Assembly (NCBI GenBank): GCA_020350825.1
Contig: CP070724.1
Coordinates: 1,013,584 to 1,077,583 of the forward strand
DNA from: Thermoplasmatales archaeon
Lineage (GTDB): Archaea; Thermoplasmatota; E2; DHVEG-1
Length of the DNA: 64,000 nt
Direction: 5' to 3'
Below are positions 7,242 to 64,000 of this stretch, piece by piece. Within the stretch, counting starts at the first letter, position 1. Every line of letters begins with the position of its first letter. The notes under the pieces are model-generated. The model made no database searches. It was given only the letters and a program-made list of their open reading frames with translations, and was not told the origin of the DNA. The translations under genes and the position numbers were made by a program.

Positions 7242-9131
7242 TTACTTTAATCCTAATATTTGTCTTAGAATTGGTAAAATCCATGGATGATTTTGTAAAA
7301 ACTGCAAGAACCACCAGTTCTGTGATAGCTGGTTCATTGGCATACTTATCTCAAGATAGCCCCAGTCGCTTTCCTCACCAAGGATATCCTTGGCTTTGGC
7401 TTTAATTTCATATGTTCCTTTTTCATCCCAAGTATGGCTAATAGTCGCTACCACACCAGAGTCATATGGTCCAATCCATCCAGAGTTGCTCTCGTCATCC
7501 CAGTCAACAAAATAATATAATTCAGAACCTTCAGGATCATTTGAAACAATAGAATAAACATAACTTTCACCAGGTTTCCCAAATGCATTGCCCGTTATCA
7601 ACGGAGGCATAGGGGGGAGATTAGGAATGTTACTTCCATGAATTTCAAGACATGGACCAAGAGAGTAGCTATATTCCTTAGTACGGAAAAATGCCTGCGG
7701 AATATCATACCATCCCCAGTAGTTATCATCAGTCACTTTCCAACCACAATTAACTTGAAGATCATCTATGAAATCTTGAACATCCTCAGTAACATCCCAT
7801 TCCACCCACATACCTGTAGATGAAGGAACAGAAGAACCTGCACTCGGTTGGGAAGCATAAGAAGGCTGTGAATTCCATGTTACAGTCTCCTCATACCAAT
7901 TGTTTGTTATTCGATAAAGATTCAAAGCATTACCAGATGGATTATTTGCATACCACATATAATAGTAGAGTTTCAATATTACTAAAGAAATTGTTGCATT
8001 CGTTGGAATTGAAGAAACATCAAATTTGATTAAAACATCAATCTCATAGAAACTACCATCTCCCCCGTATTTGTTTTGAACAATCATATAATCATAATCA
8101 CCACGAGGAAGATCTGGACCAGCAGGTTGATCAATAAAGGTATCATCCGTTGGACATAATGTCAATTTCTGAGGGTATTCAGTTGTGAATTCCCATAACG
8201 GTCCAGATGTCGAAACATTTTGGGTGTCCCAAGCGACTATCTTCCAGTAATATGTTGTCCCATACTCTAGTATTCCAGGATTGTATACCGTATCTGATTG
8301 ATTGCTTACAACCTTTGAAGGAGAAGTAGTAAGTCCAAAATACACGTCATATGTTAGAGGGTCACTATTTGGATCATCACAATCCCAGTTTAGAATGGTA
8401 TCGATGTTAACAAGAATTGCACCATCTTCTGGGTCTGGATCACCTGGCTCAAATGGTGGAAGGTTAGGAAGATTATCCCCTTGGATTTCAAGATATGGTC
8501 TAAAATTGTAACCAAATTCCTTGGTACGGAAAAATGCCTGCGGAATATCATACCATCCCCAGTAATTATCATCTACTATCTTCCAGCCATAAAAATCCTC
8601 CTGTCCACTGATAATATTTTGTACTTCATTTGTTACATCCCATTCCATCCATATACCGGTAGATGATGGAACAGGAGAATTCGCACACGGTTGAGAAGCA
8701 TAAGAGGGTTGGTTATACCACGTTGCTGTTTCTTCATCCCAGCTGCTTATTATCCGATAAAGATTCAAAGGCCTACCTGCAGGGTTATTAGCAAACCAGA
8801 AATAATAATACAGATAAAATCTAGCTGATGAAATAATCGTATTATTAGGAAAAGCAGATATATCAAATTTAACTAAAGCATCGATTTCCCAACCAGGAGT
8901 TGCCCCATATGCGTTTTCAACAATCATATAATCGTAATCACCACGAGGAAGATTTGGTCCAGCAGGTTGATCAATAAAGGTATCATCAATAGTAGTTAAC
9001 GTAATAATATCACTATTTAATTTTTCATTTTTCTTTACATAATCATCTACACTTGATACAACACTTGCTCCAAAAAACAATATTATTATTCCAACTGTTA
9101 CACTTCTCTTTAATATATAATTCTTTTTCAT
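7242..9131 (-). CDS. Secreted protein: signal peptide, two DNRLRE-like beta-sandwich units, Fn3-like domain, PKD-like module and a divergent conserved C-terminal tail
   Basis: Signal-like N-terminus MKKNYILKRSVTVGIIILFFGASVVSSV. Duplicated ...DDTFIDQPAGPxLPRGDYDYMIV...LNLYRI..W.EETxTWxxQPSYASQP. C-terminus ...ESDWGYLEISMPMNQLSQNWWFLQFLQNHPWILPILRQILGLK. Confidence 0.8.
   Translation of the reverse strand: MKKNYILKRSVTVGIIILFFGASVVSSVDDYVKKNEKLNSDIITLTTIDDTFIDQPAGPNLPRGDYDYMIVENAYGATPGWEIDALVKFDISAFPNNTIISSARFYLYYYFWFANNPAGRPLNLYRIISSWDEETATWYNQPSYASQPCANSPVPSSTGIWMEWDVTNEVQNIISGQEDFYGWKIVDDNYWGWYDIPQAFFRTKEFGYNFRPYLEIQGDNLPNLPPFEPGDPDPEDGAILVNIDTILNWDCDDPNSDPLTYDVYFGLTTSPSKVVSNQSDTVYNPGILEYGTTYYWKIVAWDTQNVSTSGPLWEFTTEYPQKLTLCPTDDTFIDQPAGPDLPRGDYDYMIVQNKYGGDGSFYEIDVLIKFDVSSIPTNATISLVILKLYYYMWYANNPSGNALNLYRITNNWYEETVTWNSQPSYASQPSAGSSVPSSTGMWVEWDVTEDVQDFIDDLQVNCGWKVTDDNYWGWYDIPQAFFRTKEYSYSLGPCLEIHGSNIPNLPPMPPLITGNAFGKPGESYVYSIVSNDPEGSELYYFVDWDDESNSGWIGPYDSGVVATISHTWDEKGTYEIKAKAKDILGEESDWGYLEISMPMNQLSQNWWFLQFLQNHPWILPILRQILGLK
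7630..9000 (-). repeat. Internal tandem duplication (period about 840-843 bp) inside CDS 7242..9131
   Basis: Near-identical stretches recur: gtacggaaaaatgcctgcggaatatcataccatccccagta at 7681 and 8524, and ccacgaggaagatYtggWccagcaggttgatcaataaaggtatcatc at 8101 and 8941. Confidence 0.85.
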
Positions 9132-29356: not shown

Positions 29357-29479
29357 GCTCAAATACAATGAAATCAGAACCTATAATCATTGTTTTTAAA
29401 TATATAAGATGATAATAATTAATAAAGAGGTTGAATTTATATATTAAATACTGCATATAACATATTTAGTGGTAAATAT

Positions 29480-32991: not shown

Positions 32992-35193
32992 ATGGAAAAT
33001 AAAAAGATAAAAAATAACTTTGTATTAGCTATGATTTTAATATTAGTTCTTTCAACAGTATCTTCATTTTCTGTGGGTAAGGTTTTACAGCAAAAAAATT
33101 ATGATAATAATAATTTAATTAATCTTAACAGAGGTGTAACTTTTGTTTCTAAATCATCAGGACTTGAAGTTCCAGCAAAAGAAGGAGGAGATACCGAGTT
33201 GGAGCTTGCCGATATCAACAATGATGGACATTTAGATATTATCTGTGTTGGTGATCATGGTTCTCCATATATTAATAGTAATCAACATGGGATTATGGTA
33301 TGGCTAGGTGATGGAGAGGGTACATGGTCTGTTATTCAAGTTGGAAATTTCGGTTATGGCGGTATTGAAGCAGGGGATCTTAACCTGGATGGCTACCTTG
33401 ATGTAGTCTGGGGGATACATCATGATTATAGTTCCACTCCTGGTTTTGGTGATACTTTAATTGGTGCTGCTTTGGGAGATGGTACTGGCTCGAATTGGAT
33501 TCCCTGGGCAACAGGGCTTGGTACTGGAGGTGAAGATTACGGTATGTTTTCAACTGATCTTGCTGATTTTGATTGTAATGGTCTACTTGATATTATTTCT
33601 CTATCATTTGGTTGTTGCAATGGTTATCACCAGTATGAAAATCATGGAGATGGAACTTGGAGTCATACTTGGGATTTATCAGGGGGGAATGCTAGAAATA
33701 ATCTTGAAACAGGTGACTTCAACGCTGATGGATATCCTGATTTTGCTGGACTTCGTGAGAATACCTATGTTTTCCTTGGAGATGGTTCTTTTGGTTTTAC
33801 TATGAATCAAAATGGTCTTCCAGCAGGATACTATTACGGTATTGATTGTGGAGATATGAATAAAGATGGATGTGATGATTTAGTCATTGGTATTGGGTCT
33901 TCTGGAGTACGTTGTTACAAGTTTGATAAACAAAATGATGAATGGGTTTCAGTATCCAGTGGTCTACCAACCGCTGGAACCTATGAGGTACAATTTGGAG
34001 ATATTGATGGGGATAGTTTTCTTGATATTCTTGCTTATAGTGCTCCCACAGGTTATGCATATCTAGGAGATGGAAATGGGAACTGGATGCTTGATGGTAC
34101 ATTTACTATGTCTAGTCCTGGTTATTATTCTGCACTCACTGTTGATGGTGATTTTGACCATGATGGTCGCGAAGATGTTTTAATACAAGCCGAGCAGGGT
34201 AGTTGGCCCTCATATCAAAATATATTAAAGGCTTATTCTCCATGGCTTGAACCAACGGCACTTACTGCTCAAGTGTCAATCCCTCATGGGGGAGAAACGT
34301 TTAGAAGCGGGTCTATTCGTAATATTCGTTGGCTTTCTGCTGTTCCACCATCACAAGATGATGCTAATGTTGAAATTCAGGTATCTCTAGATGGCGAATC
34401 AGGTCCATGGGATACAATTGCATCTGACATTCCAAATAATGGCTGCTTTCAATGGTTAGTTGATGTAGGTGGATCTGAACATTGTAGGATTAAGATTATT
34501 GTTTCTACATCATCTGGGAATATATCTGCTATATCAGCATCTGATTTTACAATTATAGGTTTTAATGTAGACGCACATGGTCCTTATCAGGGATATATAG
34601 GTGAATCTGTGCAATTTAATGGCTCAGCAGAAAATGGAACACCTCCCTATGATTTTCTTTGGGATTTTGGAGATGGTAATACATCTGTTTTGCAGAACCC
34701 AACTCATATTTATAATGACGCTGGGAATTTTACAGTTACTTTAACTGTTACTGATGATGATGGTATAACTGTTCGTGATTCAACTTGGGCTTTTATTCGA
34801 GGAGATAACAACCCTCCAAGTTCATCAGGAATAACTGGTCCAACTAGTGGCCAAGCAGGTGTAGAATATACCTATTGTGTAATCAATGTTATAGATCCAG
34901 ATGGAGATGATATTTGGGCTAACTTTAGTTGGGGAGATGGTAGTTACAGCGGGTGGATAGGCCCCAACGCTTCTGGAGAGGACATATGTGCATCGCATGC
35001 TTGGGAAAGAGGAAATTATAAAATTAAGGTAAAACTCAAGGATGAATGGGGATTGGAAAGCGATTGGTCAGATCCATTCCCAATCACGATGCCTAAAAAC
35101 AAACTCCAAATTTTTAACTTTTCAATGCTTAGTTGGCTATTTGAACGATTTCCAAATCCATTCCCGATACTACGACATATGCTAAGATTATAA
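32992..35193 (+). CDS. Secreted FG-GAP/VCBS beta-propeller protein with PKD domain and conserved C-terminal cassette
   Basis: Signal peptide. Repeated DINNDGHLDI / DLNLDGYLDV / DFNADGYPDF / DIDGDSFLDI motifs. Classical PKD (WDFGDGNTS...HIYNDAGNFTVTLTVTDDDG). C-terminus ...MPKNKLQIFNFSMLSWLFERFPNPFPILRHMLRL. Confidence 0.85.
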   Translation: MENKKIKNNFVLAMILILVLSTVSSFSVGKVLQQKNYDNNNLINLNRGVTFVSKSSGLEVPAKEGGDTELELADINNDGHLDIICVGDHGSPYINSNQHGIMVWLGDGEGTWSVIQVGNFGYGGIEAGDLNLDGYLDVVWGIHHDYSSTPGFGDTLIGAALGDGTGSNWIPWATGLGTGGEDYGMFSTDLADFDCNGLLDIISLSFGCCNGYHQYENHGDGTWSHTWDLSGGNARNNLETGDFNADGYPDFAGLRENTYVFLGDGSFGFTMNQNGLPAGYYYGIDCGDMNKDGCDDLVIGIGSSGVRCYKFDKQNDEWVSVSSGLPTAGTYEVQFGDIDGDSFLDILAYSAPTGYAYLGDGNGNWMLDGTFTMSSPGYYSALTVDGDFDHDGREDVLIQAEQGSWPSYQNILKAYSPWLEPTALTAQVSIPHGGETFRSGSIRNIRWLSAVPPSQDDANVEIQVSLDGESGPWDTIASDIPNNGCFQWLVDVGGSEHCRIKIIVSTSSGNISAISASDFTIIGFNVDAHGPYQGYIGESVQFNGSAENGTPPYDFLWDFGDGNTSVLQNPTHIYNDAGNFTVTLTVTDDDGITVRDSTWAFIRGDNNPPSSSGITGPTSGQAGVEYTYCVINVIDPDGDDIWANFSWGDGSYSGWIGPNASGEDICASHAWERGNYKIKVKLKDEWGLESDWSDPFPITMPKNKLQIFNFSMLSWLFERFPNPFPILRHMLRL

Positions 35194-52456: not shown

Positions 52457-53113
52457 TTAATCTAAAACTTCATTGATTTTATTTAGAATTTTTACTGCCC
52501 TATCTTTAGCCTCTACATAAGAGTAGTTTTCATTTCCGCTAAAATTTTCTACTTGATCCATAAAATTCAATATTTCTCTTTTGCTGCTAGTCAAATGCCT
52601 TTTTTTTGCATCTATATTTAATGGTTTTTCTCCTTGGAGTTTCTGTCCGCCTTCACTACCCCCTTCAGGAAAATACCAGTCTTTAAACCATGTGAATCCA
52701 AGATTGAATAATTTGTAGCCTAGTCGTGTTATCGGCGGTGGAATACCATAGTTAAGGCCAAAAGCTGTTTCTTTATCACTATAGTACGCAACATAAATGG
52801 TCTCTCCTGGCCCGAGTGAATTAGAGAATAAATTCAATAAGTAATCCTCAATTTTTGAATTAAAATACTCGATTTTATTTCCCAACATTATATTATTGTT
52901 TATATTGGAAAATTCAACCCAAGGACGGTAATAAGGTTTAAGACCGTAATACACCGTTGTATCAAGAAGTTCTTCTTCCTTATCATCTTTCTTCAGGGAG
53001 ACATGTAATCTAACTTCATTTCTGAGTCTACCATGTTTTACATTTTTAGCATGGACTATGGACCTATTAACTCTGAGACCTTTCGCTAATTTTTCAACAG
53101 TCTTTTTAAGCAT
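52457..53113 (-). CDS. Conserved hypothetical protein
   Basis: 218-aa ORF with no confidently recognised family (possibly a DUF-type archaeal family). Confidence 0.45.
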   Translation of the reverse strand: MLKKTVEKLAKGLRVNRSIVHAKNVKHGRLRNEVRLHVSLKKDDKEEELLDTTVYYGLKPYYRPWVEFSNINNNIMLGNKIEYFNSKIEDYLLNLFSNSLGPGETIYVAYYSDKETAFGLNYGIPPPITRLGYKLFNLGFTWFKDWYFPEGGSEGGQKLQGEKPLNIDAKKRHLTSSKREILNFMDQVENFSGNENYSYVEAKDRAVKILNKINEVLD

Positions 53114-53231
53114 AGTCTCTAGTTATATATGGTCTTGTCCTTAAAATCATTTTAGGGTCAAAAAACAGAAAAAGAAAAATTCTTAAATATGCAGTAATTT
53201 ATTTTTAAAAAATGATGGAGGTGATAAAAAT

Positions 53232-53399
53232 ATGACATTGACATTAGACTGTAAAGATATTGGGACTAATTGCCCCTACGTAGCACATGGTGAAACTGAA
53301 GAGGAATTGATGGTAGATGCTATAGAGCACAGCAAAGAAGTCCTAGATTATACGGATGAACAAATGAATACCAAGAAGAGTGGAGGTAAATTAGAATGA
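53232..53399 (+). CDS. DUF1059-like small metal-binding protein
   Basis: Absent from the ORF track (55 aa). Own translation: MTLTLDCKDIGTNCPYVAHGETEEELMVDAIEHSKEVLDYTDEQ... ATGA overlap with the next gene. Confidence 0.55.
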   Translation: MTLTLDCKDIGTNCPYVAHGETEEELMVDAIEHSKEVLDYTDEQMNTKKSGGKLE

Positions 53400-53824
53400 G
53401 TGTAGAAGAAAACCTAAATATTATTGAAATTGTAGACAAAGCGTTCAACGAAAGAGATTGGGATATTTTTAATCGATGTCATACTGAGTCAATCATCTGT
53501 TATACCCCCCGAACTCCAGAGCCTGACAAAGGAATAGATGCTCATCGTGAATCAGTAAAAGGTTTAATCAGTACATTTCCTGACTTCCATTTGAAAAGAG
53601 AACGTAGTTTTGGCCAGGACGACTGGACCTGTGCCATTTACAAAATTACAGGGACTCATAAAAGTCCTCTTCAGGGATCGGGTGGTAAAACAATCCCCCC
53701 AACCAATAAGCCAATTCGAATTGACCTTGCTATTGCGCTCAGGTTTGAAGGTGGCAAAATCGCGGAAGAACACATATACTATGACCGTCTTGCTATGTTG
53801 GCTCAGCTAGGTCTCGCCCCGTAA
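53396..53824 (+). CDS. SnoaL-like / ester-cyclase (NTF2-fold) protein
   Basis: NLNIIEIVDKAFNERDWDIFNRCHTES... and C-terminal KIAEEHIYYDRLAMLAQLG, typical of ester cyclases. Confidence 0.6.
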   Translation: MSVEENLNIIEIVDKAFNERDWDIFNRCHTESIICYTPRTPEPDKGIDAHRESVKGLISTFPDFHLKRERSFGQDDWTCAIYKITGTHKSPLQGSGGKTIPPTNKPIRIDLAIALRFEGGKIAEEHIYYDRLAMLAQLGLAP

Positions 53825-53980
53825 TATGTTGACAAATTTAGGTAACATCATCAACTTAAAATCAACCGCATTTATATTATTGTAAAAACTAAAATAATGC
53901 ATAAACCAGATAATTTTTATTTTTTAATATTTTTCATGAGTTTATAACTTTTCAAGGACGAAAAGATTGTTAGTAATTGC

Positions 53981-54040
53981 TATTTTTAAATTGTTTTTAA
54001 ACTATTTTTAATTCGTTTTTAAGATATGATTAAATATTTC
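53981..54040 (+). promoter_or_regulatory. Phased T5A2-3 repeat promoter, copy A (4 units plus TATA-like box)
   Basis: tatttttaaa ttgtttttaaa ctatttttaat tcgtttttaag atatgatTAAATATTt. T5 tracts start at 53983, 53994, 54005 and 54016, exactly 11 bp apart. GGAGGT RBS at 54071, ATG at 54084. Confidence 0.6.
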
Positions 54041-54083
54041 GAAGAAATGGAGAATATAATAAGATAATAATGGAGGTAGAAAT

Positions 54084-54461
54084 ATGTTAGTAAATGCTCA
54101 ATTAGTAGCCACAGTTCCTGTGGTAGATTTGGAACGTGCGAGAAGATTTTATGAGGAAAAACTCGACTTAAATCTTTGTGAAATTAATGAACAAGGAATT
54201 GTGTTCGAAGCAGGAGATGAAACACAGCTCTATCTTTACAAAAGAGATCAAACCAAAGCGGATCATACAGTAGCATCATTTTTAGTTGAAGATATCGAAA
54301 CAGAAGTTAAAAGACTCAAAGAGAAGGGTGTCGTTTTCGAAGAATATGATTCTCCTCAAATTAAAACTATAAACAGTATCGCGACTACAGGAGAATATAA
54401 ATCGGCTTGGTTTAAAGATACCGAAGGTAATATTCTTGCTGTAACTAAAAAGATCTCATAG
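54084..54461 (+). CDS. VOC (glyoxalase/bleomycin-resistance) family protein
   Basis: 125 aa with the paired beta-alpha-beta-beta-beta pattern: VPVVDLERARRFYEEKLDL ... AWFKDTEGNILAV. Confidence 0.7.
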   Translation: MLVNAQLVATVPVVDLERARRFYEEKLDLNLCEINEQGIVFEAGDETQLYLYKRDQTKADHTVASFLVEDIETEVKRLKEKGVVFEEYDSPQIKTINSIATTGEYKSAWFKDTEGNILAVTKKIS

Positions 54462-54671
54462 ACATATTAATTTCTTCTTCTTTTTTTTAATAATTATATT
54501 TTTAAATGGTGACAATGGAGAATTTCTATCATCTAATAATAGTTTAATCAGTTGTTATGATTACCCAAGTTTCAGGAGAAGATTTTGTTATTTGTTAAAA
54601 TATTGGAATTTATTAGGGTATTAGTAAAGTATTTATGAAAAAATGTTATAGAATAGTGATAAAATATTAAA

Positions 54672-57032
54672 ATGAAGGGGGAGCAAATGACCAATAAGAA
54701 AAAACTTGATAGTTCTAAGAATTTAAACGAGACTCGTTCTTATGTTAATCTCGAAAAGATTACAAAGGAGCGTAAGATTGCGGATAAGATATTCAAGCAA
54801 TTCTTTGATAATGGGCCAGAATACAGTTATATCGTTTCAACAGAAGGGCTAATAATCGATGTAAACCGTGCTGCACTCAAAGCGTTAGGCTACAGGAAAG
54901 CAGAGCTCATCGGTAAGCCTCTAAAAACGATTTATGCTCCTGAATCATTATCGAAGATGCAGCAAATTTTTGAAAAGTGGAAAAAGATCGGACATATTAG
55001 GAATAAAGAAATTGTAATTATGACGAAGAAAGGGGGGAGGCGAACAGTTCTTCTCAGTGCCGGTGCAGTGAGAGATAGCAATGGGAAAATTCAGTATTCT
55101 GTATCAATCCAAAGGGATATTACTGAACGTAAGAAGATAGGAAGAGAAAAAGAAAAGTTATTGCATGACTTAGGTGAACGTGTAAAAGAACTTAATTATC
55201 TTTACGGTCTTTCAAAACTTGTTGAGCGATCTAATATCACATTGGAGGAAATATATCAAGGGGCTGTTGATTTAATCCCACCTTCTTGGCAGTATCCAGA
55301 TATTACATGTGCAAGAATAATTATTGATAATAAAGAATTTAAAACACTAAACTGTATGGAGAGTAAGTTCAAACAGTTTGCTGATATTAGAGCCTATGGA
55401 AAGATAGTTGGCGTTATCGAGGTCTACTACCTGGAAAAAAGGCCTATTATTGATGAAGGGCCATTCTTAAAAGAGGAGAGGAAGCTATTAGACGCTATTG
55501 CTGAACGTTTGGGACGTATCACCGAACGTAAGAAGGCAGAAATCAGACTAAGGGAAAGTGAACAGAGGTATTCGCTTGCTCAACGAGCAGCTAATATTGG
55601 TAGCTGGGATTGGGATATTCTAACTGATGATCTGATATGGTCTGAGCAGATAGAACCCCTGTTTGGATTTAGTAAGGGTAAATTTGGGGGAACTTACCGA
55701 GCGTTTCTTGATTGTGTTCATCCTGAAGATCTTCAATTTGTGATTGATTCAATTAATGCCTGTGTAAAACATGGCAAGGATTACGCAATAGAACATCGTA
55801 TTGTCTGGCCTGATGGTACTGTGCGTTGGGTTTCAGAAACAGGGGATGTTATCAGAGATGATAAAGGGATGGCGATACGAATGCTTGGAGTTGTGCACGA
55901 CATCACTAAGCGTAAAAAAGCAGAGGATGCTGTTAAAGTTGCATATACAGAACTTGATCAGATATTCAACACCGCAGCAGATGGGATGCGTGTGATTGAT
56001 AAAAACTTCAACATTCTTCGAATCAATGATACATTTGCAAAACTTGTAGGTATAGACAAGGATAAAGCAGTGGGTAAAAAGTGTTACGATGTGTTTCCTG
56101 GTTCTCAATGCCATACTCCCCGTTGTCCGTTGACCCAGATACTTAATGGTAAGGAATATCTTGAATATGAAGTAAAAAAAGAGCGAAGTGATGGCACCAA
56201 AATTGATTGCATTGTATCGATAACTCCCTTTTTGGGGCACGATGGCGAGCTTCTTGGTATTGTAGAGGATTTCAAAGATATCACTGATCGGAAAAAATCT
56301 GAGGTGAAAATTAAAAAATTGAATGAGGATTTAACACGGCAAACAGTTGAGCTCACTGCAATAAATAAGGAATTGGAAGCATTTAGTTATTCTGTTTCCC
56401 ATGATTTACGGGCTCCATTACGTAGCATCGATGGTTTTAGTCAGGCATTGTTAGAAGATTATGAAGATAAGTTAGATGAACAAGGTAAGGACTATCTACG
56501 ACGGGTACGTAAATCAACTCAACGTATGGGGCAACTCATTGACGATATGCTTAAATTGTCACGTTTGACACGTTCCGAGATGCATTACGAGGAAGTCGAT
56601 TTAAGTAAATTAGCACGATCCGTTTCGGAACAACTCCAAAAGACGGAACCATCACGGAATGTAAATTTTATAATTAATGACGGACTAACTACGAAAGGAG
56701 ACAATCATCTTCTTCAGATAGCACTTGAAAACCTTTTTGGTAATGCATGGAAGTTTACAAAAAGACAGTCAAATGCAAAAATCGAAATGGGTAAAACAAT
56801 TGAAAAGGGAAAACAAGCATTCTTTATACGTGACAATGGTGTTGGTTTTAATATGAAATATGCAGATAAACTATTTGTTCCCTTTCAGCGTCTTCATCCT
56901 TCAGATGAATTCCCTGGTACTGGTATTGGACTGGGAATTGTCTCACGTATTATACATAAACATGGAGGTTATATATGGGCTGAAGCAGAAGTGGGAAAAC
57001 ATGCAACATTCTATTTCACATTAGAAAGTTAA
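54672..57032 (+). CDS. Multi-PAS sensor histidine kinase
   Basis: At least three PAS/PAC modules (e.g. WDWDILTDDLIWSEQ...HPEDL...RIVWPDGTVRWV). H-box FSYSVSHDLRAPLRSI. HATPase N/G boxes NLFGNAWKF and GTGIGLGIV. Confidence 0.9.
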   Translation: MKGEQMTNKKKLDSSKNLNETRSYVNLEKITKERKIADKIFKQFFDNGPEYSYIVSTEGLIIDVNRAALKALGYRKAELIGKPLKTIYAPESLSKMQQIFEKWKKIGHIRNKEIVIMTKKGGRRTVLLSAGAVRDSNGKIQYSVSIQRDITERKKIGREKEKLLHDLGERVKELNYLYGLSKLVERSNITLEEIYQGAVDLIPPSWQYPDITCARIIIDNKEFKTLNCMESKFKQFADIRAYGKIVGVIEVYYLEKRPIIDEGPFLKEERKLLDAIAERLGRITERKKAEIRLRESEQRYSLAQRAANIGSWDWDILTDDLIWSEQIEPLFGFSKGKFGGTYRAFLDCVHPEDLQFVIDSINACVKHGKDYAIEHRIVWPDGTVRWVSETGDVIRDDKGMAIRMLGVVHDITKRKKAEDAVKVAYTELDQIFNTAADGMRVIDKNFNILRINDTFAKLVGIDKDKAVGKKCYDVFPGSQCHTPRCPLTQILNGKEYLEYEVKKERSDGTKIDCIVSITPFLGHDGELLGIVEDFKDITDRKKSEVKIKKLNEDLTRQTVELTAINKELEAFSYSVSHDLRAPLRSIDGFSQALLEDYEDKLDEQGKDYLRRVRKSTQRMGQLIDDMLKLSRLTRSEMHYEEVDLSKLARSVSEQLQKTEPSRNVNFIINDGLTTKGDNHLLQIALENLFGNAWKFTKRQSNAKIEMGKTIEKGKQAFFIRDNGVGFNMKYADKLFVPFQRLHPSDEFPGTGIGLGIVSRIIHKHGGYIWAEAEVGKHATFYFTLES

Positions 57033-57100
57033 AAAAAAGGAATTAGATTATGAATATGAAAATCATGTATAAACTGCCGTTATCATAATTTTAGGGGTAG

Positions 57101-58702
57101 ATGGTTATGAAACTTCGTGTGCTAATGGTTGAAGATTCAGAAGACGATGCCCTAATGGTGAGAAGAGAGTTAAAGAAAGGAGGTTTTGATCTTATAGTCG
57201 AACGTGTAGAAACTGATAAAGATATGCGGAAAGCATTACAGAATCAAAAATGGGATGTGATTATATCTGATTATGTTTTGCCAAGTTTTAGTGGATTAGA
57301 TGCTTTGAAGGTTCTTCAAAAAACTGATCTTGATTTACCATTTATAATTGTATCAGGTAAAATTGGGGAGGAAACTGCAGTAGAGATGATGAAAGCTGGT
57401 GCCCATGACTATATTATGAAAAACAATCTTAGTAGACTTAATCCTGCAATAAAACGAGAGCTTGAAGAAGTAAAAGTACGATTAGAGCGACAAAAAATTA
57501 AGGAAGATTTAATAGAGTCATATTCTGAACTTGAAAAGAAGAGTGCGCAGCTGGAAAAAGCTAATATAAAATTAAAGGGAGAAATTATTAAAAGGGAGAA
57601 AGCAGAGAAACAAGCTGTTGAAGTTAAGGAACATCTACAAAATGTTATCAATAGTGCCTCTGAAATTATTATCTCAATCGATAAGAATAATAGAATTACA
57701 ACATGGAATAAAACAGCAGAGCTGATTACTGGATATAAACATAAAGAGGTACTTAACAGATCTATCAATAAATTATCAATGTTTGATAACTCACAAAATG
57801 TAATAGATATTGTCAAAACTGTATATCAAGAGAAAAAATTTGGATATGACGACCTAGTATTGATAACAAAAAATAATGTTAAGAAAATAATCCGCGTCAT
57901 AGGATCGGTTATTAAGGGTAAATATAAACAAGACATAGGGATTCTTTTTGTAGGGACCGATATTACAAAGGATATTGAAATACATGGGAAATTACTCCTG
58001 GGAAATAGCTATTTAATCCCTGATAAAAATAATAAAGTAGCAGTAGATCTTTTTATAGATCTAACAAGATCAGAGCATCAAGGTTTGTTTTTCACTCGTT
58101 CTAACCCTGTAATGATAAAAAGCATCATACCTCCTAAGTTTAAAATTCAAGTTATTCTATTAAGTAAGGAAAAATCAGAAGATTATAAAAATATCTCGGA
58201 TCTTGATTCACTTATACATGAAATCAAAGAGTTCAGTATAAAAAATAACAATGCTGTAATTTTATTAGATGGTATTCACTATTTGTTAACTATTTTTTCG
58301 TTTGAAAAATTTATCGAAGCCTTATATCAAATTAACGATTTGATGGCTAAAAACAAATCAATATTGTTAATGCGATTTGACGCCTCACTTGTAGATAATA
58401 ATAAAATGGCAATAATTGAAAATGAACTTCAATTATTACCTAGCCAAAAATTAGAAGGTCTAATTATAGAAGACTCTGTATATAATATGCTTAAATTTAT
58501 CCATGAACAAAATCAAAATAATGCTTTGGTTTCATTCAAAAAAATCATGGTCAAATTTAAAATTGCATATTCAACAGCTGCAAAAAGACTTCAAATCCTT
58601 GAAATTAAAGGATTGATCTTCACAAAAAGACAAGGAAAACTAAGAACAGTATATATTTCAGAAAAAGGAAAAACATTATTATCTAAACGACAAACAGCCT
58701 AG
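57101..58702 (+). CDS. Response regulator: REC, coiled coil, PAS, DUF835, C-terminal winged helix
   Basis: REC (VLMVEDSEDD...VIISDYVLPSFSGLD...IIVSGKIGEE). PAS (ITTWNKTAELITGYKHKEV). DUF835-like (GNSYLIPD...GLFFTRSNP...VILLDGIHYLL...ILLMRFD). wHTH-like tail (YSTAAKRLQILEIKGLIFTKRQGKLRTVYISEKG). Confidence 0.75.
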   Translation: MVMKLRVLMVEDSEDDALMVRRELKKGGFDLIVERVETDKDMRKALQNQKWDVIISDYVLPSFSGLDALKVLQKTDLDLPFIIVSGKIGEETAVEMMKAGAHDYIMKNNLSRLNPAIKRELEEVKVRLERQKIKEDLIESYSELEKKSAQLEKANIKLKGEIIKREKAEKQAVEVKEHLQNVINSASEIIISIDKNNRITTWNKTAELITGYKHKEVLNRSINKLSMFDNSQNVIDIVKTVYQEKKFGYDDLVLITKNNVKKIIRVIGSVIKGKYKQDIGILFVGTDITKDIEIHGKLLLGNSYLIPDKNNKVAVDLFIDLTRSEHQGLFFTRSNPVMIKSIIPPKFKIQVILLSKEKSEDYKNISDLDSLIHEIKEFSIKNNNAVILLDGIHYLLTIFSFEKFIEALYQINDLMAKNKSILLMRFDASLVDNNKMAIIENELQLLPSQKLEGLIIEDSVYNMLKFIHEQNQNNALVSFKKIMVKFKIAYSTAAKRLQILEIKGLIFTKRQGKLRTVYISEKGKTLLSKRQTA

Positions 58703-58723
58703 ATTCATTTTCCCCGATTAAAA

Positions 58724-58770
58724 TCGTTTTTAAGTTGTTTTTAATTTGTTTTTAAGTCATGATTTTATAT
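58724..58770 (+). promoter_or_regulatory. Phased T5A2 repeat promoter, copy B (3 units plus TATA box)
   Basis: tcgtttttaag ttgtttttaat ttgtttttaag tcatgaTTTTATAT. T5 tracts at 58727, 58738 and 58749. GGAGGT at 58806, ATG at 58819. Confidence 0.6.
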
Positions 58771-58818
58771 GTCGTAGTAATAGTAAAAATTAAAAAAAAT
58801 ATATTGGAGGTAAAAATT

Positions 58819-60066
58819 ATGAAAAATAATTTAGTTATAAAGGCTGTTATTTGCGGAATTGTAATAATAATTAGTAGTGCAAGTTTTATATCAACGGTCA
58901 TATCAGACGAAACCAGGATAACATCCTTTGTATCCTCAATGAAAGCTACTTGGATAGTTGATGACGAGGGCGATGGAGACTTTACTACTATTCAAGATGC
59001 AATAAATAATTCTCAATCTGGGGATACCATTGAAGTTTACAGTGGAACATATGTTGAACATGTGAATATTAGTAAAACCATTACACTCCTTGGGAAAGAC
59101 GTAGAACTTGGAAGTGGAAGTGACACAGGCATTCCAATCATCGACGGAAGTAATACTGACGATATAGTTAATATAACAGCCAATGGAGTGACAGTTAATA
59201 AGTTTAAAATTAGAAATGGTGGAATCGATGGCGCAGCAATTAAATTACGATCAAGTGCTAACAGTTACATATATAGCAATATACTCATAGACAGCGATGA
59301 TGGAGTAAGACTTAGAGAATCTAGTGATAACAACTACGTCTACCAGAACACGATAATTAACAATGACGACGGTATCGATATTAGAGATTCAAACAACAAC
59401 CATATCTATGAAAACAACATTGAGAACAACGATGATGGAATCGATATAAGAGATTCAAGCACAAACAATCATATATTTCATAACAACTTTATGAACAATA
59501 ATGACAATGCGTTCGATGAAGCAACCAATATGTGGGATGACGGATATCCATCTGGTGGAAATTACTGGGATGATTATACTGGATCTGATGGTGATGGTGA
59601 TGGCATTGGAGATACCCCATATAATATCCCTGGTGGTAGTAACCAAGACAACTATCCACTAATGAATCCATGGCAAGATGATAACAATCCTCCAAGTATA
59701 CCAGATATCAACGGAACTATTAATGGAAAAGTTGGGACAGAGTATGAATACACCTTCGTGTCGACGGATCCTGATGGCGATGATGTCTTTTATTGTATTA
59801 TATGGGGTGATGAAACACCTGAAGTATGTATTGGACCATTTAATTCAGGTGATACGGCAACTGCTAAACATATATGGTCAGAAGAGGGAATGTATACTGT
59901 CTCGGTTAGAGCAAAGGATATCCATGATGCTGAGGGTGACTGGGGCACGCTTGAGGTAACCATGCCTAAGAATAAAGCATTCAATTTCAACTTTAATCTG
60001 ATGGGTTGGTTGTTTGAACGGTTTCCAAATGCATTCCCAATACTACGATACATGCTAGAGCTATAA
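58819..60066 (+). CDS. Secreted right-handed parallel beta-helix (PbH1/NosD-like) protein with conserved C-terminal cassette
   Basis: Signal MKNNLVIKAVICGIVIIISSASF. WIVDDEGDGDFTTIQDAINNSQSGDTIEVYSGTY followed by NNDDGIDIRDS repeats. C-terminus ...MPKNKAFNFNFNLMGWLFERFPNAFPILRYMLEL. The track start at 58759 lies inside promoter copy B, so 58819 is preferred. Confidence 0.85.
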   Translation: MKNNLVIKAVICGIVIIISSASFISTVISDETRITSFVSSMKATWIVDDEGDGDFTTIQDAINNSQSGDTIEVYSGTYVEHVNISKTITLLGKDVELGSGSDTGIPIIDGSNTDDIVNITANGVTVNKFKIRNGGIDGAAIKLRSSANSYIYSNILIDSDDGVRLRESSDNNYVYQNTIINNDDGIDIRDSNNNHIYENNIENNDDGIDIRDSSTNNHIFHNNFMNNNDNAFDEATNMWDDGYPSGGNYWDDYTGSDGDGDGIGDTPYNIPGGSNQDNYPLMNPWQDDNNPPSIPDINGTINGKVGTEYEYTFVSTDPDGDDVFYCIIWGDETPEVCIGPFNSGDTATAKHIWSEEGMYTVSVRAKDIHDAEGDWGTLEVTMPKNKAFNFNFNLMGWLFERFPNAFPILRYMLEL

Positions 60067-60196
60067 AAACTAACTAAACCAACCTCCAACAATATTTGGT
60101 TTTGTTACAGATGTTGCAATAAATATAAAAGAAAAGATATTTAAATAAAAAAATTATATCAAACACAGGAGAATGAAATTTATTAGAGGGAAAAAT

Positions 60197-63139
60197 ATGA
60201 AAAATATTAGAATTGGAATTGTAGTGTGTATGCTGTTGATAACATCTTTTTCAATTTCGACTACAGCTATAGTAAATATAAAGGAATCATACAGTAGTAT
60301 TAATTTAAGCTCACATGTGAGTGAAATATTACTAACTGATTGGTATTTACAAACATCTTGGGATACCAGTGGCCTGTTTGGATTTTATTTTTCAAGTAAT
60401 GATGTAGGATGGGCAGTAGGAGTAGGAACCATACTTCATACTTCTGATGGTGGAAATATTTGGTTTGAGCAGGATTATCCCGCGGCTAGTAATTTATATA
60501 GCGTATTTTTCATAAACAATTACATAGGTTGGACTTCTGGTTCTAATGGCGTTATTTTACATACTACAGATGGTGGAAATACATGGGTGGAACAAGACCA
60601 TAGCTTTACTAATGGAGGTTATTTCTTTAGTGGCCTATATTTCTTAGATGCCAATAATGGTTGGGCTGTTGGTGGTAAACCGTATACTTATAACTCTCCT
60701 AATAAACGTGTAATATTGCATACAACTGATGGTGGAGATACCTGGGTAACAAATCTATATGAATCATATACCAGTCGTCTTTTAGCAGTCTATTTTACTG
60801 ATACCAATAATGGTTGGGCAGTAGGTGAGTATGATCAATATAGTGGTCATGTTTTACATACTAGTAATGGTGGAGCTACGTGGGTGGTTCAGGATCCTGG
60901 AGTAACATCACATTTAACTGATGTTCATTTTACAGATTCAAATAATGGCTGGATAATTGGAGGTTTCGGACTTTTACTACATACAACTAATGGTGGAGAT
61001 ACTTGGACATCTGAAGACCCTGGAACTTCCGATAGTTTATCTGGTATTCATTTCATTGATGGTCAAAATGGATGGATCGCAGGTGGCAACAATAATGATG
61101 CTACCATAATGCATACCAATGATGGCGGTGGTACTTGGACTGCTGATAATCCTGGAACAACTAATTTTTTGTATGATATTTTTTTAACTGATTCTACTCA
61201 TGGTTGGGCTGGCGGTATTCATGGTGACATTGTCTCTACAATACAAACAAGTAATACTCCTCCTGATCAGCCGTTTGATCCGATTCCATCTGATGGAGAG
61301 ACAAATGTTAATCTTGACCCTACATTGTCTGTTAAAGTTACAGATCCAAATTCAGATACGTTGACTGTAAGTTTCTATGATGCTTCAGATAATAGTTTAA
61401 TCGGCACAGATAACAATGTAGTAAGTGGAGATAGAGCATATATCATATGGAATGATCTTGAGTCTTCAACTACTTATAATTGGTACGTAGTTGCAGATGA
61501 TGGTGAAGATTCCACTCAATCACCTACATGGAGTTTTACAACAACTGGTGCAAACCAACCTCCTAATGAACCAACAAATCCCATGCCTCCAAATGGTGCA
61601 ACAGATGTCGAATTAAATCCGACGTTATGTGTCAAATTAACTGATCCTAATATTGACTCTATGACTGGACGTTTTTATGATGCAAGTGATAATAGCTTAA
61701 TTGGAATTGATTATGGGGTTCCTAGCGGTGATATGGCATATGTCACATGGTCCGGTCTTTCTCCTGAAACAACATATAGCTGGTACTCTAAAGCTGATGA
61801 TGGTGAGTATATAACCCAGTCTAATACCTGGTCATTTACCACATGTTGTGCAAACCAGCCTCCTAATTCACCAATATTTCCTATACCTTCAGATGGTGCT
61901 ACTGGAGTTGGTCTTAATCCTCCCCTTTCGGTTGAAGTAAATGATCCTGATGCTGATTCCATGACTGTACGTTTTTATGATGCAAGTGATAATAGCTTAA
62001 TTGGAATGGACGATGGAGTTACAAGTGGTAATAGAGCTATTGTTATTTGGCCTAATCTTTCACCTTCCGTGACCTATAGTTGGTATGCAGTTGCAGATGA
62101 TGGTGAATATACTAATCAGTCTGATATCTGGGAATTTACAACTGATTCAGTAAATAATGCTCCGCTAGCACCAACAAATCCATTACCTTCAGATGGTGCT
62201 ACTGGAGTTGGTCTGAATCCTACCCTTTCGGTTGAAGTAAATGATCCTGATGCGGACTCTATGACTGTTCGTTTCTATGATGCAAGCGATGATAGCTTAA
62301 TTGGAATGGACGATGATGTTATTAGTGGTGGAAGAGCTTATACTCCTTGGAATGGTCTGTCACCTTCTACCTCATATGATTGGTATGCAGTTGCAGATGA
62401 TGGTGAATATACTACTCAGTCTGATACCTGGTCATTTACTACTGGTGCAGAAAATAATGCTCCTTTAGAACCAACAAATCCTATACCTTTAAATGATGCC
62501 ACTGGAGTTGATCTTAATTCTACTCTTTCGGTTGAAGTAAACGATCCTGATGCTGATTCCATGACTGTTCGTTTCTATGATGCAAGGGATGACAGCTTAA
62601 TTGGAACTGACTTTAATGTTCCTAGTGGAAGCAGAGCTTATATGGGATGGTTTAACCTTGAACCATTGAGCATGTACAGTTGGTATGCAGTTGCAGATGA
62701 TGGAGAGTATACTACTCAGTCTGATACTTGGAGTTTTGTAACCATTCAGGATCCTGATAATAACCCGCCGAGTACACCAACTATATTAGGTCCAGAACGT
62801 GGAAAACCTGGTATAGAATATACCTATACATTCAATTCAGTAGATCCAGATGGGGATGACATAGTATATTGTATACAATGGGGTGATGATACCGAAATAT
62901 GTCTTGGCCCTTATCCATCTGGGGAAGATGTAGTCGCGACTCATATTTATGAAGAAAAAGGAGGGTATACTATCAGAGCAAAAGCGGAAGACTCAAATGA
63001 GGCAGAAAGCGACTGGGGAACACTCAAAATCGAAATGCCAAAAAATAAAGCATTTAAATTCAACTTTCCTCTCCTTAATTGGCTATTTGAACGATTTCCA
63101 AACACCTTCCCATTACTCAGGTACCTTCTAGGACTATAA
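60197..63139 (+). CDS. Secreted BNR/Ycf48-like beta-propeller protein with five Fn3-like repeats and conserved C-terminal cassette
   Basis: Six HT(S/T/N)(D/N)GGxTW blades, five 100-aa repeats, and C-terminus ...MPKNKAFKFNFPLLNWLFERFPNTFPLLRYLLGL. The ORF is open from 60173, but the Met at 60197 gives a normal signal peptide (MKNIRIGIVVCMLLITSFSISTTA) and RBS spacing. Confidence 0.85.
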   Translation: MKNIRIGIVVCMLLITSFSISTTAIVNIKESYSSINLSSHVSEILLTDWYLQTSWDTSGLFGFYFSSNDVGWAVGVGTILHTSDGGNIWFEQDYPAASNLYSVFFINNYIGWTSGSNGVILHTTDGGNTWVEQDHSFTNGGYFFSGLYFLDANNGWAVGGKPYTYNSPNKRVILHTTDGGDTWVTNLYESYTSRLLAVYFTDTNNGWAVGEYDQYSGHVLHTSNGGATWVVQDPGVTSHLTDVHFTDSNNGWIIGGFGLLLHTTNGGDTWTSEDPGTSDSLSGIHFIDGQNGWIAGGNNNDATIMHTNDGGGTWTADNPGTTNFLYDIFLTDSTHGWAGGIHGDIVSTIQTSNTPPDQPFDPIPSDGETNVNLDPTLSVKVTDPNSDTLTVSFYDASDNSLIGTDNNVVSGDRAYIIWNDLESSTTYNWYVVADDGEDSTQSPTWSFTTTGANQPPNEPTNPMPPNGATDVELNPTLCVKLTDPNIDSMTGRFYDASDNSLIGIDYGVPSGDMAYVTWSGLSPETTYSWYSKADDGEYITQSNTWSFTTCCANQPPNSPIFPIPSDGATGVGLNPPLSVEVNDPDADSMTVRFYDASDNSLIGMDDGVTSGNRAIVIWPNLSPSVTYSWYAVADDGEYTNQSDIWEFTTDSVNNAPLAPTNPLPSDGATGVGLNPTLSVEVNDPDADSMTVRFYDASDDSLIGMDDDVISGGRAYTPWNGLSPSTSYDWYAVADDGEYTTQSDTWSFTTGAENNAPLEPTNPIPLNDATGVDLNSTLSVEVNDPDADSMTVRFYDARDDSLIGTDFNVPSGSRAYMGWFNLEPLSMYSWYAVADDGEYTTQSDTWSFVTIQDPDNNPPSTPTILGPERGKPGIEYTYTFNSVDPDGDDIVYCIQWGDDTEICLGPYPSGEDVVATHIYEEKGGYTIRAKAEDSNEAESDWGTLKIEMPKNKAFKFNFPLLNWLFERFPNTFPLLRYLLGL
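61253..62752 (+). repeat. Five in-frame tandem repeats, exact 300-bp period, inside CDS 60197..63139
   Basis: tgcaagtgataatagcttaattggaat... recurs at 61681, 61981, 62281 and 62581, with a diverged copy at 61381. Copies 3-5 are the most similar to each other. Confidence 0.9.
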
Positions 63140-63205
63140 AACCAGACTAAAATAACCTCCATCTTTTTCTTTTAAATAATTATCATGATTTACACTGAAA
63201 TTAAA

Positions 63206-63241
63206 ACATTTTTAATTTGTTTTTTAGTCATACTTTTATAT
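63206..63241 (+). promoter_or_regulatory. Phased repeat promoter, copy C (2 units plus TATA box), with no intact gene downstream
   Basis: acatttttaat ttgttttttag tcatacTTTTATAT. Downstream GGAGGA (63275) is followed by ATC instead of ATG, then a stop. Confidence 0.5.
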
Positions 63242-63466
63242 TGTAGAGCTATTGGTGAAGATGTTTTGAACGGTTGGAGGATATAAAATCAAAAACTAAA
63301 ACAGGGAAAACGGAATCTTTGTATTCCAAGATGAAGAAAAGTTTTTTTACAATAACTCTCCCCTCCTCCAAACCCCAAAGTTCTAGATTATAAAATATTC
63401 AAATCTAGATATAATAAAATCTGTTTCAAAAAACTTGGCTTTTAAACTTATTTTAACGATTCGCAA

Positions 63467-63513
63467 TTGTTTTTTACTCATTTTTAAATCATTTTTAAGT
63501 CATATATTTATTT
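63467..63513 (+). promoter_or_regulatory. Phased repeat promoter, copy D (3 units plus TATA-like box)
   Basis: ttgttttttac tcatttttaaa tcatttttaag tcatataTTTATTT. T tracts at 63470, 63481 and 63492. ATG at 63573. Confidence 0.6.
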
Positions 63514-63572
63514 GACGAATGTATTTAAGATACGAAAACGATTTTGAAACCATACCGAAAAGGATAGAAAAA

Positions 63573-64000
63573 ATGAAGAAAAAAATTATTTTGTTGGTGG
63601 AAGATGATCCTAATGATATAGATCTAACAAAACGTGCATTTAAAAAAAGCAAAATTACAGAAGATATTAAGATTATTGTTGCCCACGATGGATTTGAGGC
63701 ATTGAATTATCTTAATGGAAATAGTAGAAATAAAGATCGAATTACAAATTTTATTCCTAAAATAATTCTGCTTGATTTGAATCTACCAAAAATGACCGGT
63801 CTTGAATTATTAAAGCATATCCGAGCTAATAAAAAATCAGAATTGATACCTGTAGTTATACTTTCATCGTCAAAAGAGGAACAGGATATTGTAAATGCTT
63901 ACAAATTAGGAGCTAACAGTTATATTCGTAAACCAGTAGATTTTAAGAAATTTAGTAGTGTAGCGCAACAATTAGGATCATATTGGGTAGGATTAAACGA
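63573..64000 (+). CDS. CheY-like response regulator receiver protein (3' end beyond window)
   Basis: Absent from the ORF track (open at the edge). Own translation: MKKKIILLVEDDPNDIDLTKRAFKK...IILLDLNLPKMTGLELLKHIRA...IPVVILSSSKEEQDIVNAYKLGANSYIRKPVDF. Confidence 0.85.
   Translation, partial: MKKKIILLVEDDPNDIDLTKRAFKKSKITEDIKIIVAHDGFEALNYLNGNSRNKDRITNFIPKIILLDLNLPKMTGLELLKHIRANKKSELIPVVILSSSKEEQDIVNAYKLGANSYIRKPVDFKKFSSVAQQLGSYWVGLN

Follow-up and report, generated by a model that had tools for sequence, protein, structure and literature searches.

What reads the T-tracts that recur, one helical turn apart, in front of several genes around a two-component locus of a Thermoplasmatales archaeon? 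The question arises from a 64,000-nucleotide stretch of its genome (contig CP070724.1, positions 1,013,584 to 1,077,583 of the forward strand; hereafter the window), in which a first-pass annotation had described four promoters, A to D, each preceded by an array of an 11-bp T-tract unit, close to genes for a histidine kinase, a response regulator of the REC-PAS-DUF835 type and a CheY-like protein. Our analysis indicates that the arrays are very probably a dedicated, conserved cis-regulatory element. We further propose, with a probability of roughly 0.6, that they are upstream activating sites bound by the adjacent REC-PAS-DUF835 regulator, an assignment inferred from the association of arrays and regulator gene across species.

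Four promoters carry T-tracts in strict 11-bp phase

The window has a GC content of 30-38% and encodes DUF1122 and DUF835 proteins. Re-reading the sequence by the starts of the T-runs recovered all four arrays as described. They lie on the + strand, hold 4, 3, 2 and 3 head-to-tail units with the 11-bp consensus tYRTTTTTWAn, and in all four the T-runs advance by exactly 11 bp (Table 1). Array A is real, with its in-frame start at 53980 rather than 53981, and has a summed matrix score of 49.2 bits, while array B begins 22 nt past the stop codon of the regulator gene. The final unit ends TTTTTAAG in A, B and D and TTTTTTAG in C; after its closing AG come NYAT, 2-3 nt and a TATA-like box, the unit ending 7 nt before the box. 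As the host is an archaeon, this box can be taken as a real TATA box, which places the array at the position of an upstream activator, beside the TFB-recognition element (BRE). The BRE position in the tail of array A is occupied by a non-consensus sequence.

The layout further downstream was also present as annotated. GGAGG occurs at 54072 (A), 58806 (B) and 63276 (C), with AAGGA at 63560 in D, and an ATG follows at 54084 (A), 58819 (B) and 63573 (D), its place in C being taken by ATC with a stop three codons on. The open reading frame (ORF) listed from ATG 58759 behind array B has a better start at ATG 58819, after the GGAGG.

The signal is the phasing, not the single box. Single RTTTTTAAR boxes are unphased and occur in the window at chance level (21 versus 17.3 expected), in line with the first-pass annotation, although the box that it gave at 29385 sits at 29392. 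The phased pattern TTTTTAN5TTTTTA was matched six times in the window against 0.25 expected, and all six matches fall inside A, B and D. Using an 11-nt matrix built from the 12 units, we found arrays of two or more units only at A-D on both strands (128 kb); Markov shuffles gave a mean of 0.5 such arrays and none of three or more units. This matrix was trained on the A-D units themselves, and the result shows that other arrays are absent. An independent run of Tandem Repeats Finder gave a period of 11 at A, B and D. None of the roughly 50 remaining upstream regions in the window has an array; ordinary promoters of the window differ, as in ccaaacaTTTAAAT with its A-rich BRE. The proposal that A to D form one promoter family is supported.

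A weak array-like stretch, TTTTTT-AATA-TTTTT-CATGAG-TTTATAAC, was also noted at 53914-53950, 65 nt 5' of array A. Its two T-runs are 11 bp apart and a TATA-like box comes next, the score being under the threshold for a unit. The stretch may be a fifth copy in degenerate form, or a chance occurrence.

The element is conserved beside one regulator gene

In dozens of uncultured relatives of the archaeon, arrays of this design again lie beside the gene for this regulator. Searching one genome per species (185,579 species) with the DNA-only pattern TTTTTWAN4TTTTTWAGNYATN3TWWAT, we obtained at least 118 stretches. Among the matches listed, most were from scattered AT-rich bacteria, and at least 15 were Thermoplasmata-type or related archaeal loci. 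At least eight of these 15 carried the orthologous kinase / REC-PAS-DUF835 / CheY-like cluster inside the 8-kb chunk (L010 with the adjacent L054, L044, L045, L055, L068, L082 and L110), which represents at least seven other species. Further arrays beyond the first match, again among the matches listed, numbered 16 in 98 kb for Thermoplasmata-type loci and 5 in 722 kb for bacterial loci.

Loci retrieved by similarity to the regulator protein contained 44 arrays in 341 kb, compared with 1 in shuffles. The control loci ('REC-only') yielded four arrays, all in L165 and L172; these two are regulator-locus fragments, and the true controls have 0 arrays in about 360 kb. Because the control set is richer in GC and contained these regulator fragments, we also compared loci matched for GC and, from the pattern scan, the bacterial hits. 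Within the 40-50% GC class, 14 arrays were found in 117 kb of regulator loci and 0 in 163 kb of controls. The arrays are enriched 15-20 times around one regulator gene, in species of 30-48% GC.

Spacing, flanks and placement are all constrained. Across species, strong units are separated by 11 bp in 50 cases, by 10 bp in four and by 12 bp in two, with a further 28 separated by 22 bp. When arrays were detected by T4 runs alone, the other positions of the unit were still conserved (Y at -2, 35/40; R at -1, 38/40; T at +4, 31/40; A at +6, 30/40). In the protein-anchored loci, 57 non-identical arrays are followed, after their final unit, by TnATnnTTTTAT in one fixed register, and every array is co-oriented with its downstream gene. 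These findings bear out the earlier view of the phased units as a conserved, oriented and sequence-specific cis-element rather than generic AT-rich DNA.

The loci of four diverged regulators (winged helix 48-53% identical; 51-60% GC) have no T5 arrays. Two of these four loci show TTCTTTAATCG-like 11-bp repeats, the loci being too few and too short for covariation. In the GC-rich L147 (1164-1299) and L158 (898-1212), units of the TTCTTTAATCG, AGATTTAGTCA and AACTTTAATAT type stand at 11-bp spacing before a TATA-like box; these repeats may represent the T-tract element in shifted form.

The regulator ends in a predicted winged helix

DNA-binding response regulators are considered rare in archaea, and a 2018 census assigns REC-(PAS)-DUF835 proteins, which occur in Methanomicrobia and Thermoplasmata, to an 'iKaiC' output class without a recognized DNA-binding domain (Galperin et al. 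2018, PMC5847659). The regulator in the window has the REC-(PAS)n-DUF835 architecture, with significant matches to REC (PF00072, E=4.7e-18) and DUF835 (PF05763, E=1.3e-16), and D12, D57 and K107 of its REC domain are retained throughout 44 orthologues. Hundreds of homologues (42-67% identity) carry the labels Thermoplasmata, Thermoplasmatota or Methanomassiliicoccales.

Searching Pfam, we found no match to Trans_reg_C in this protein even at E<=10. The best Pfam match to its C-terminus was HTH_45 (E=1.6e-4), whose 22 bits fall under the 25.5 cut-off, and phmmer against PDB sequences returned only E>=0.016. We used AlphaFold2 to generate predicted structures. In the full-length model (predicted local distance difference test, pLDDT, 86), a disordered linker parts DUF835 from a C-terminal domain, and the last 86 residues modelled alone reached a pLDDT of 88.8 and a predicted template modelling (TM) score of 0.79. 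DSSP applied to the domain model gave H11-25, H32-39, H43-55, E59-64 and E67-72, that is, three helices and a beta-hairpin. Foldseek matched this model to AF1382, Thermoplasma RbkR-DNA, SlyA, MexR, MepR-DNA, FabT-DNA and the DNA-spreading protein AspA (TM 0.67-0.82, with 0.70-0.82 for the DNA-bound MarR-type structures); with the full-length model, REC and PAS matches dominate. On the basis of these models, the C-terminus is confidently predicted to be a MarR/ArsR-like winged helix missed by Pfam.

The last 80 residues are also the most conserved part of the regulator. Among orthologues with array-bearing loci, the winged helix is 66-83% identical, compared with 54-67% for the whole protein, and the recognition helix (A/S)(Y/F)ST(A/V)AKR is almost invariant in all of them.

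A model for the arrays and its alternatives

We propose that each 11-bp unit (tYR-TTTTT-WA-n) would serve as one site for the regulator, with 2-5 units following one another head-to-tail on a single helix face and the final unit ending 7 bp before the TATA box, at the usual place of the BRE. The PAS kinase would phosphorylate the regulator, leading to oligomerization through the coiled coil, DUF835 or both. Winged helices would then fill successive units, and the final copy, lying against BRE/TATA, would aid TFB/TBP at promoters with a poor BRE. The coiled coil (79 residues) and the RecA/KaiC-like DUF835 both lend themselves naturally to oligomerization, which would fit the occupation of 2-5 sites spaced one turn apart. 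The number of units would tune sensitivity, and T-tract curvature with narrow minor grooves would probably contribute to recognition. The CheY-like REC protein, an array target in eight cases, would serve, like its counterpart in FilI/FilR1/FilR2, as a partner in feedback or a sink for phosphate. Activation seems somewhat more probable than repression. A bolder version of this mechanism, which we consider doubtful, is that DUF835, as an inactive KaiC/RecA-like domain, is a phosphorylation-gated polymerization module presenting one winged helix per turn. The resulting nucleoprotein filament, short and countable, would span the 2-5 units, replace the BRE and recruit TFB; the protein would represent a new class of archaeal DNA-binding response regulator, and its conserved stress regulon would take in small structured RNAs whose stems are GGAG/CCUCC or whose loops are C-rich and anti-Shine-Dalgarno-like.

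The regulator had already been nominated as the binder from its position in the window. Cross-species linkage and the predicted winged helix now favour it, although the link is one of guilt by association, and several points weigh against it. Its winged helix is sub-threshold by sequence (HTH_45, 22 versus 25.5 bits); the control loci are more GC-rich than most of the orthologous loci; the size and exclusivity of the regulon rest on the 64 kb of the window plus the relatives; and the T8 run that follows the VOC gene behind array A is an argument against transcription continuing from there into the genes for kinase and regulator. Finally, about half of the relatives encode an array-fronted DUF2582 protein beside the regulator, and this protein could be the binder.

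The last point belongs to the one serious alternative, which we regard as unlikely: the element is real and is read by another protein, be it the DUF2582 double winged-helix protein, an unlinked regulator or an alternative TFB recognizing AAG-TYAT, with the REC-PAS-DUF835 protein as a co-regulated member or an upstream signalling step. DUF2582 genes with arrays of their own lie between the regulator and CheY genes in L003, L045/L125, L110, L128, L139 and L140, conservation of the element peaks at TTTTTAAG TYAT, which overlaps the BRE position, and the sub-threshold score just mentioned is consistent with a different reader. However, no homologue of DUF2582 was detected in the 64-kb window, and the gene is not at the locus in L001, L010/L082, L044 and L203, which have arrays nonetheless. 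It is the regulator gene that is the sole constant neighbour of the arrays, and its winged helix that is conserved beyond the rest of the protein, both of which count against this alternative.

Static DNA curvature is classically produced by T5-6 tracts that recur with an 11-bp period (A-tract bending), and the strict period of the arrays would suit a generic UP-like or bent element that works by intrinsic curvature without a dedicated binder. Such an element would account for neither the conserved flanking positions nor the fixed orientation and register to the TATA box; moreover, the arrays are missing from about 50 other promoters of the window and cluster around one regulator gene with the enrichment given above. 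Curvature may well contribute, yet it leaves specificity unexplained, and as the whole account it is improbable. Weaker still, and in our judgement very improbable, is redundant termination of the co-oriented upstream genes (SnoaL, regulator, BNR protein), since, although runs of at least five T are known archaeal termination signals and A, B and C sit 22-156 nt 3' of a + strand gene, back-to-back arrays occur in divergent intergenic regions (L001 4667- / 4722+; L044 6807- / 6863+) and the exact 11-bp period, the flank conservation and the fixed distance to the TATA box are left unexplained; a secondary insulating or termination role of the T-runs is possible.

Genes behind the arrays

Across species, arrays were found in front of genes for HSP20 (14 sites), stand-alone CheY-like REC proteins (8), GAPDH (8), an M50-CBS protease (6) and the DUF2582 winged-helix protein (5). 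Glutaredoxin-like, CBS and NosD-like beta-helix proteins (the last in the window and L058) account for two sites each, while Usp, ferritin, a desulfoferrodoxin-type superoxide reductase, dodecin, ChaB, DUF4382 and a P-type ATPase are represented by single sites. The beta-helix homologue in L058 (42-48% identity) likewise lies behind an array, of four units. Judged by gene content, the arrays probably define a conserved stress regulon, redox or oxygen related. None of the classic members (HSP20, GAPDH and so on) is present in the 64-kb window, where the targets are a VOC-fold gene (A), a beta-helix gene (B), an ORF-less transcript (C) and a CheY-like gene (D).

The first-pass annotation had envisaged an autoregulated, local regulon. 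'Local' is too narrow, as arrays in relatives also precede the HSP20, GAPDH, M50-CBS, Usp, ferritin, superoxide reductase and glutaredoxin genes. Autoregulation has support in relatives, in which arrays head kinase/regulator operons: in L044 an array lies directly 5' of the kinase gene, and in L203 one heads a packed string of M50 protease, thioredoxin-reductase-like and glutaredoxin genes, kinase and regulator. In the window it is doubtful because a T8 run follows the VOC gene and the kinase has its own 210-nt upstream region (54462-54671, from the VOC stop to the kinase gene). VOC and kinase are probably separate transcription units, and array A may drive the VOC gene alone. A T5 run (54499-54503) was also seen 3' of VOC, and a TATA-like tatttat at about 54631 ahead of the kinase ATG.

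Relation to known systems

By analogy, the logic resembles that of PhoB on pho boxes; what differs is the output domain, the architecture and the archaeal basal machinery. Features in common with the bacterial PhoB/OmpR systems are the response regulator of a two-component pair, its output a winged helix (predicted in the present case); 11-bp direct repeats with seven conserved and four variable positions, running head-to-tail along a single face of the DNA; sites that abut and would replace a weak core-promoter element; and a repeat number that varies by promoter. Unlike PhoB/OmpR, the protein here has no Trans_reg_C, its predicted fold being of the MarR/ArsR/AF1382 type, and it combines REC, coiled coil, PAS, DUF835 and winged helix; the basal factors are TBP/TFB instead of sigma70, and the unit is a T-tract.

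Archaeal activators of the Ptr2 and TrmBL1/SurR type bind directly 5' of BRE/TATA, in one orientation and at a fixed distance. The arrays obey the same position rule, at promoters that have a poor BRE. The activators are one-component dimers or octamers on palindromes or paired sites, whereas the array promoters have 2-5 direct repeats and phospho-relay input would be expected. Target overlap is seen with Phr, an archaeal heat-shock regulator (hsp20, AAA+ gene), and with the redox regulators MsvR and SurR, in HSP20 and redox/oxidative-stress genes. These regulators differ in belonging to other families, in using palindromic motifs, in acting mostly as repressors over the TATA box or start, and in lacking two-component input.

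Among archaeal two-component systems, FilR1 (with FilI and FilR2) of Methanosaeta, LtrR of Methanococcoides and Bat of haloarchaea also have helix-turn-helix (HTH) or winged-helix domains (PMC5847659). In FilI/FilR1/FilR2, too, the DNA-binding regulator has a stand-alone REC protein as its partner, and Bat (REC-PAS-GAF-BAT-HTH) similarly has a C-terminal HTH and an upstream site near the TATA box (PMC5847659). FilR1, LtrR and Bat differ from the present regulator in domain architecture and HTH family. No phased 11-bp T-tract array is described in the 2018 census, which is also the only publication in which we found DUF835 mentioned (PMC5847659). Literature searches on archaeal upstream repeats with response regulators, or on two-component stress regulation in Thermoplasmatota, returned nothing relevant.

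Most archaeal two-component systems have no known output. One such family, REC-PAS-DUF835, is now tied to a previously unannotated, predicted winged helix, to a precise conserved cis-element and to a recurring set of stress genes in uncultured Thermoplasmatota. This gives a testable signal-to-promoter pathway and a DNA pattern for reading the regulon from metagenomes, and the strict one-turn phasing of 2-5 sites beside a TATA box offers a neat system for studies of TBP/TFB recruitment.

A putative structured RNA behind array C

Array C had been thought to precede a decayed gene start. Neither tblastx nor tblastn revealed a coding remnant 3' of C, and an Rfam scan of 53000-64000 gave no match. 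The region is homologous to positions 11660-11782 of L123, the closest relative compared (nhmmer E=0.0026), where the counterpart is also ORF-less and lies between the regulator and the CheY promoter. In the window, GGUUGGAGGA (63272-81) can pair with UCCUCCAAACC (63356-66) around an inner hairpin, GGAAUCUUUGUAUUCC. The GGAGG at 63276, earlier read as a ribosome-binding site (RBS), forms the 5' arm of this stem with UCCUCC at 63356, and in L123 the arms are instead GGAGAA and UUCUCC. Similarly, the inner hairpin GGAAU/AUUCC of the window becomes GGAGU/ACUCC in L123. The shared structure has 21 pairs, three of them compensatory between these two sequences, and the folding z-score of the region is -1.57. 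Site C probably drives a small structured RNA, not a decayed gene, a reading that we keep tentative because only two sequences are compared and because of this z-score. A transcript of 110-150 nt, with the 'RBS' GGAGG base-paired, is possible. Further 3', past the conserved foldable region and up to 63409, the window has a hairpin, UCUAGAUU...AAUCUAGA, then A/U-rich sequence.

In one sublineage of the relatives a different RNA-like element, a conserved hairpin of about 94 nt, lies behind an array-type promoter located immediately past the CheY-like gene (Table 1). It consists of GGAGrUUGUAGAGyG, an A-rich part, a C-rich loop (CCCCUCCCC) and CACUCUACAACAyCUCC, with a compensatory GUAAAG/CUUUAC change in L144. 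A covariance model built from nine copies recovered 11 further copies and scored 40-98 bits on the regulator's strand against 25-34 on the opposite strand. We know of no Rfam-style name for this element, which looks like a small RNA of the regulon with an anti-Shine-Dalgarno-like loop. Its homology to the site C RNA was considered and dropped, as the covariance model matches nothing in the window.

Genes and other features of the locus

The coordinates of the locus are collected in Table 1. The histidine kinase is probably cytoplasmic, and its orthologues adjoin the regulator gene in all relatives examined. Residues 471-486 of the kinase (56082-56129) form a cysteine motif, CYDVFPGSQCHTPRCP, within a PAS domain, with a similar motif, CYEAFQKFRTPCDFC, in the L044 orthologue. 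This hints at a metal, Fe-S or thiol redox sensor, which would suit a stress regulon. The promoter of the CheY gene in L123 is almost identical to D (TCATTTTTTAG tcatatatttattt).

Table 1 Arrays, genes and RNA features at the two-component locus of the window, with hairpin examples from relatives
Feature	Coordinates	Strand	Description
Array A	53980..54023	+	Four units, CTATTTTTAAA TTGTTTTTAAA CTATTTTTAAT TCGTTTTTAAG
T-run starts, array A	53983, 53994, 54005, 54016	+
Tail A	54024..54037	+	ATATGA, then TATA box TTAAATAT at 54030-54037
VOC gene (array A target)	54084..54461	+	125-aa glyoxalase/VOC-fold protein; PF00903, E=3.6e-7
T8 run after VOC stop codon	54482-54489	+
Histidine kinase gene	54672..57032	+	Multiple PAS, HisKA, HATPase_c
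Regulator gene	57101..58702	+	533 aa; database start 57107
Regulator domains (residues)			REC 1-106, coiled coil 107-185, PAS 189-295, DUF835/iKaiC 300-445, linker, predicted winged helix 459-532
Array B	58724..58756	+	Three units, TCGTTTTTAAG TTGTTTTTAAT TTGTTTTTAAG
T-run starts, array B	58727, 58738, 58749	+
Tail B	58757..58770	+	TCATGA, then TATA box TTTTATAT at 58763-58770
Beta-helix gene (array B target)	58819..60066	+	Secreted NosD-like beta-helix/PKD protein
Array C	63206..63227	+	Two units, ACATTTTTAAT TTGTTTTTTAG
T-run starts, array C	63209, 63220	+
Tail C	63228..63241	+	TCATAC, then TATA box TTTTATAT at 63234-63241
Putative small non-coding transcript	63264..63385	+	Driven by array C; no credible ORF
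Array D	63467..63499	+	Three units, TTGTTTTTTAC TCATTTTTAAA TCATTTTTAAG
T-run starts, array D	63470, 63481, 63492	+
Tail D	63500..63513	+	TCATATA, then TATA-like TTTATTT at 63507-63513
CheY-like gene (array D target)	63573..64000	+	Stand-alone REC; runs past window end
Hairpin of about 94 nt, L003	12805-12898		Example from a relative
Hairpin of about 94 nt, L068	1816-1909	-	Example from a relative
Hairpin of about 94 nt, L130	3403-3496		Example from a relative
Hairpin of about 94 nt, L141	14239-14328		Example from a relative

Array B perhaps also governs the BNR/PKD gene behind the beta-helix gene. Four large secreted proteins of the window share a C-terminal PKD-like module (59890-60066, 62960-63139, 35015-35193 and, on the - strand, 7242-7420) that ends MPKNK..FNF..L.WLFERFPN.FP(I/L)LR..L.L, and an array promoter is present at one of the four genes. 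The module may be a lineage-specific sorting or anchor signal. Within the BNR/PKD gene, a 300-bp (100-aa) repeat stands about 3.2 times in tandem at positions 61638-62731, its copies about 80% identical, and in the protein the module bearing the recurrent motif 'VRFYDASDNSLIG' is present six times.

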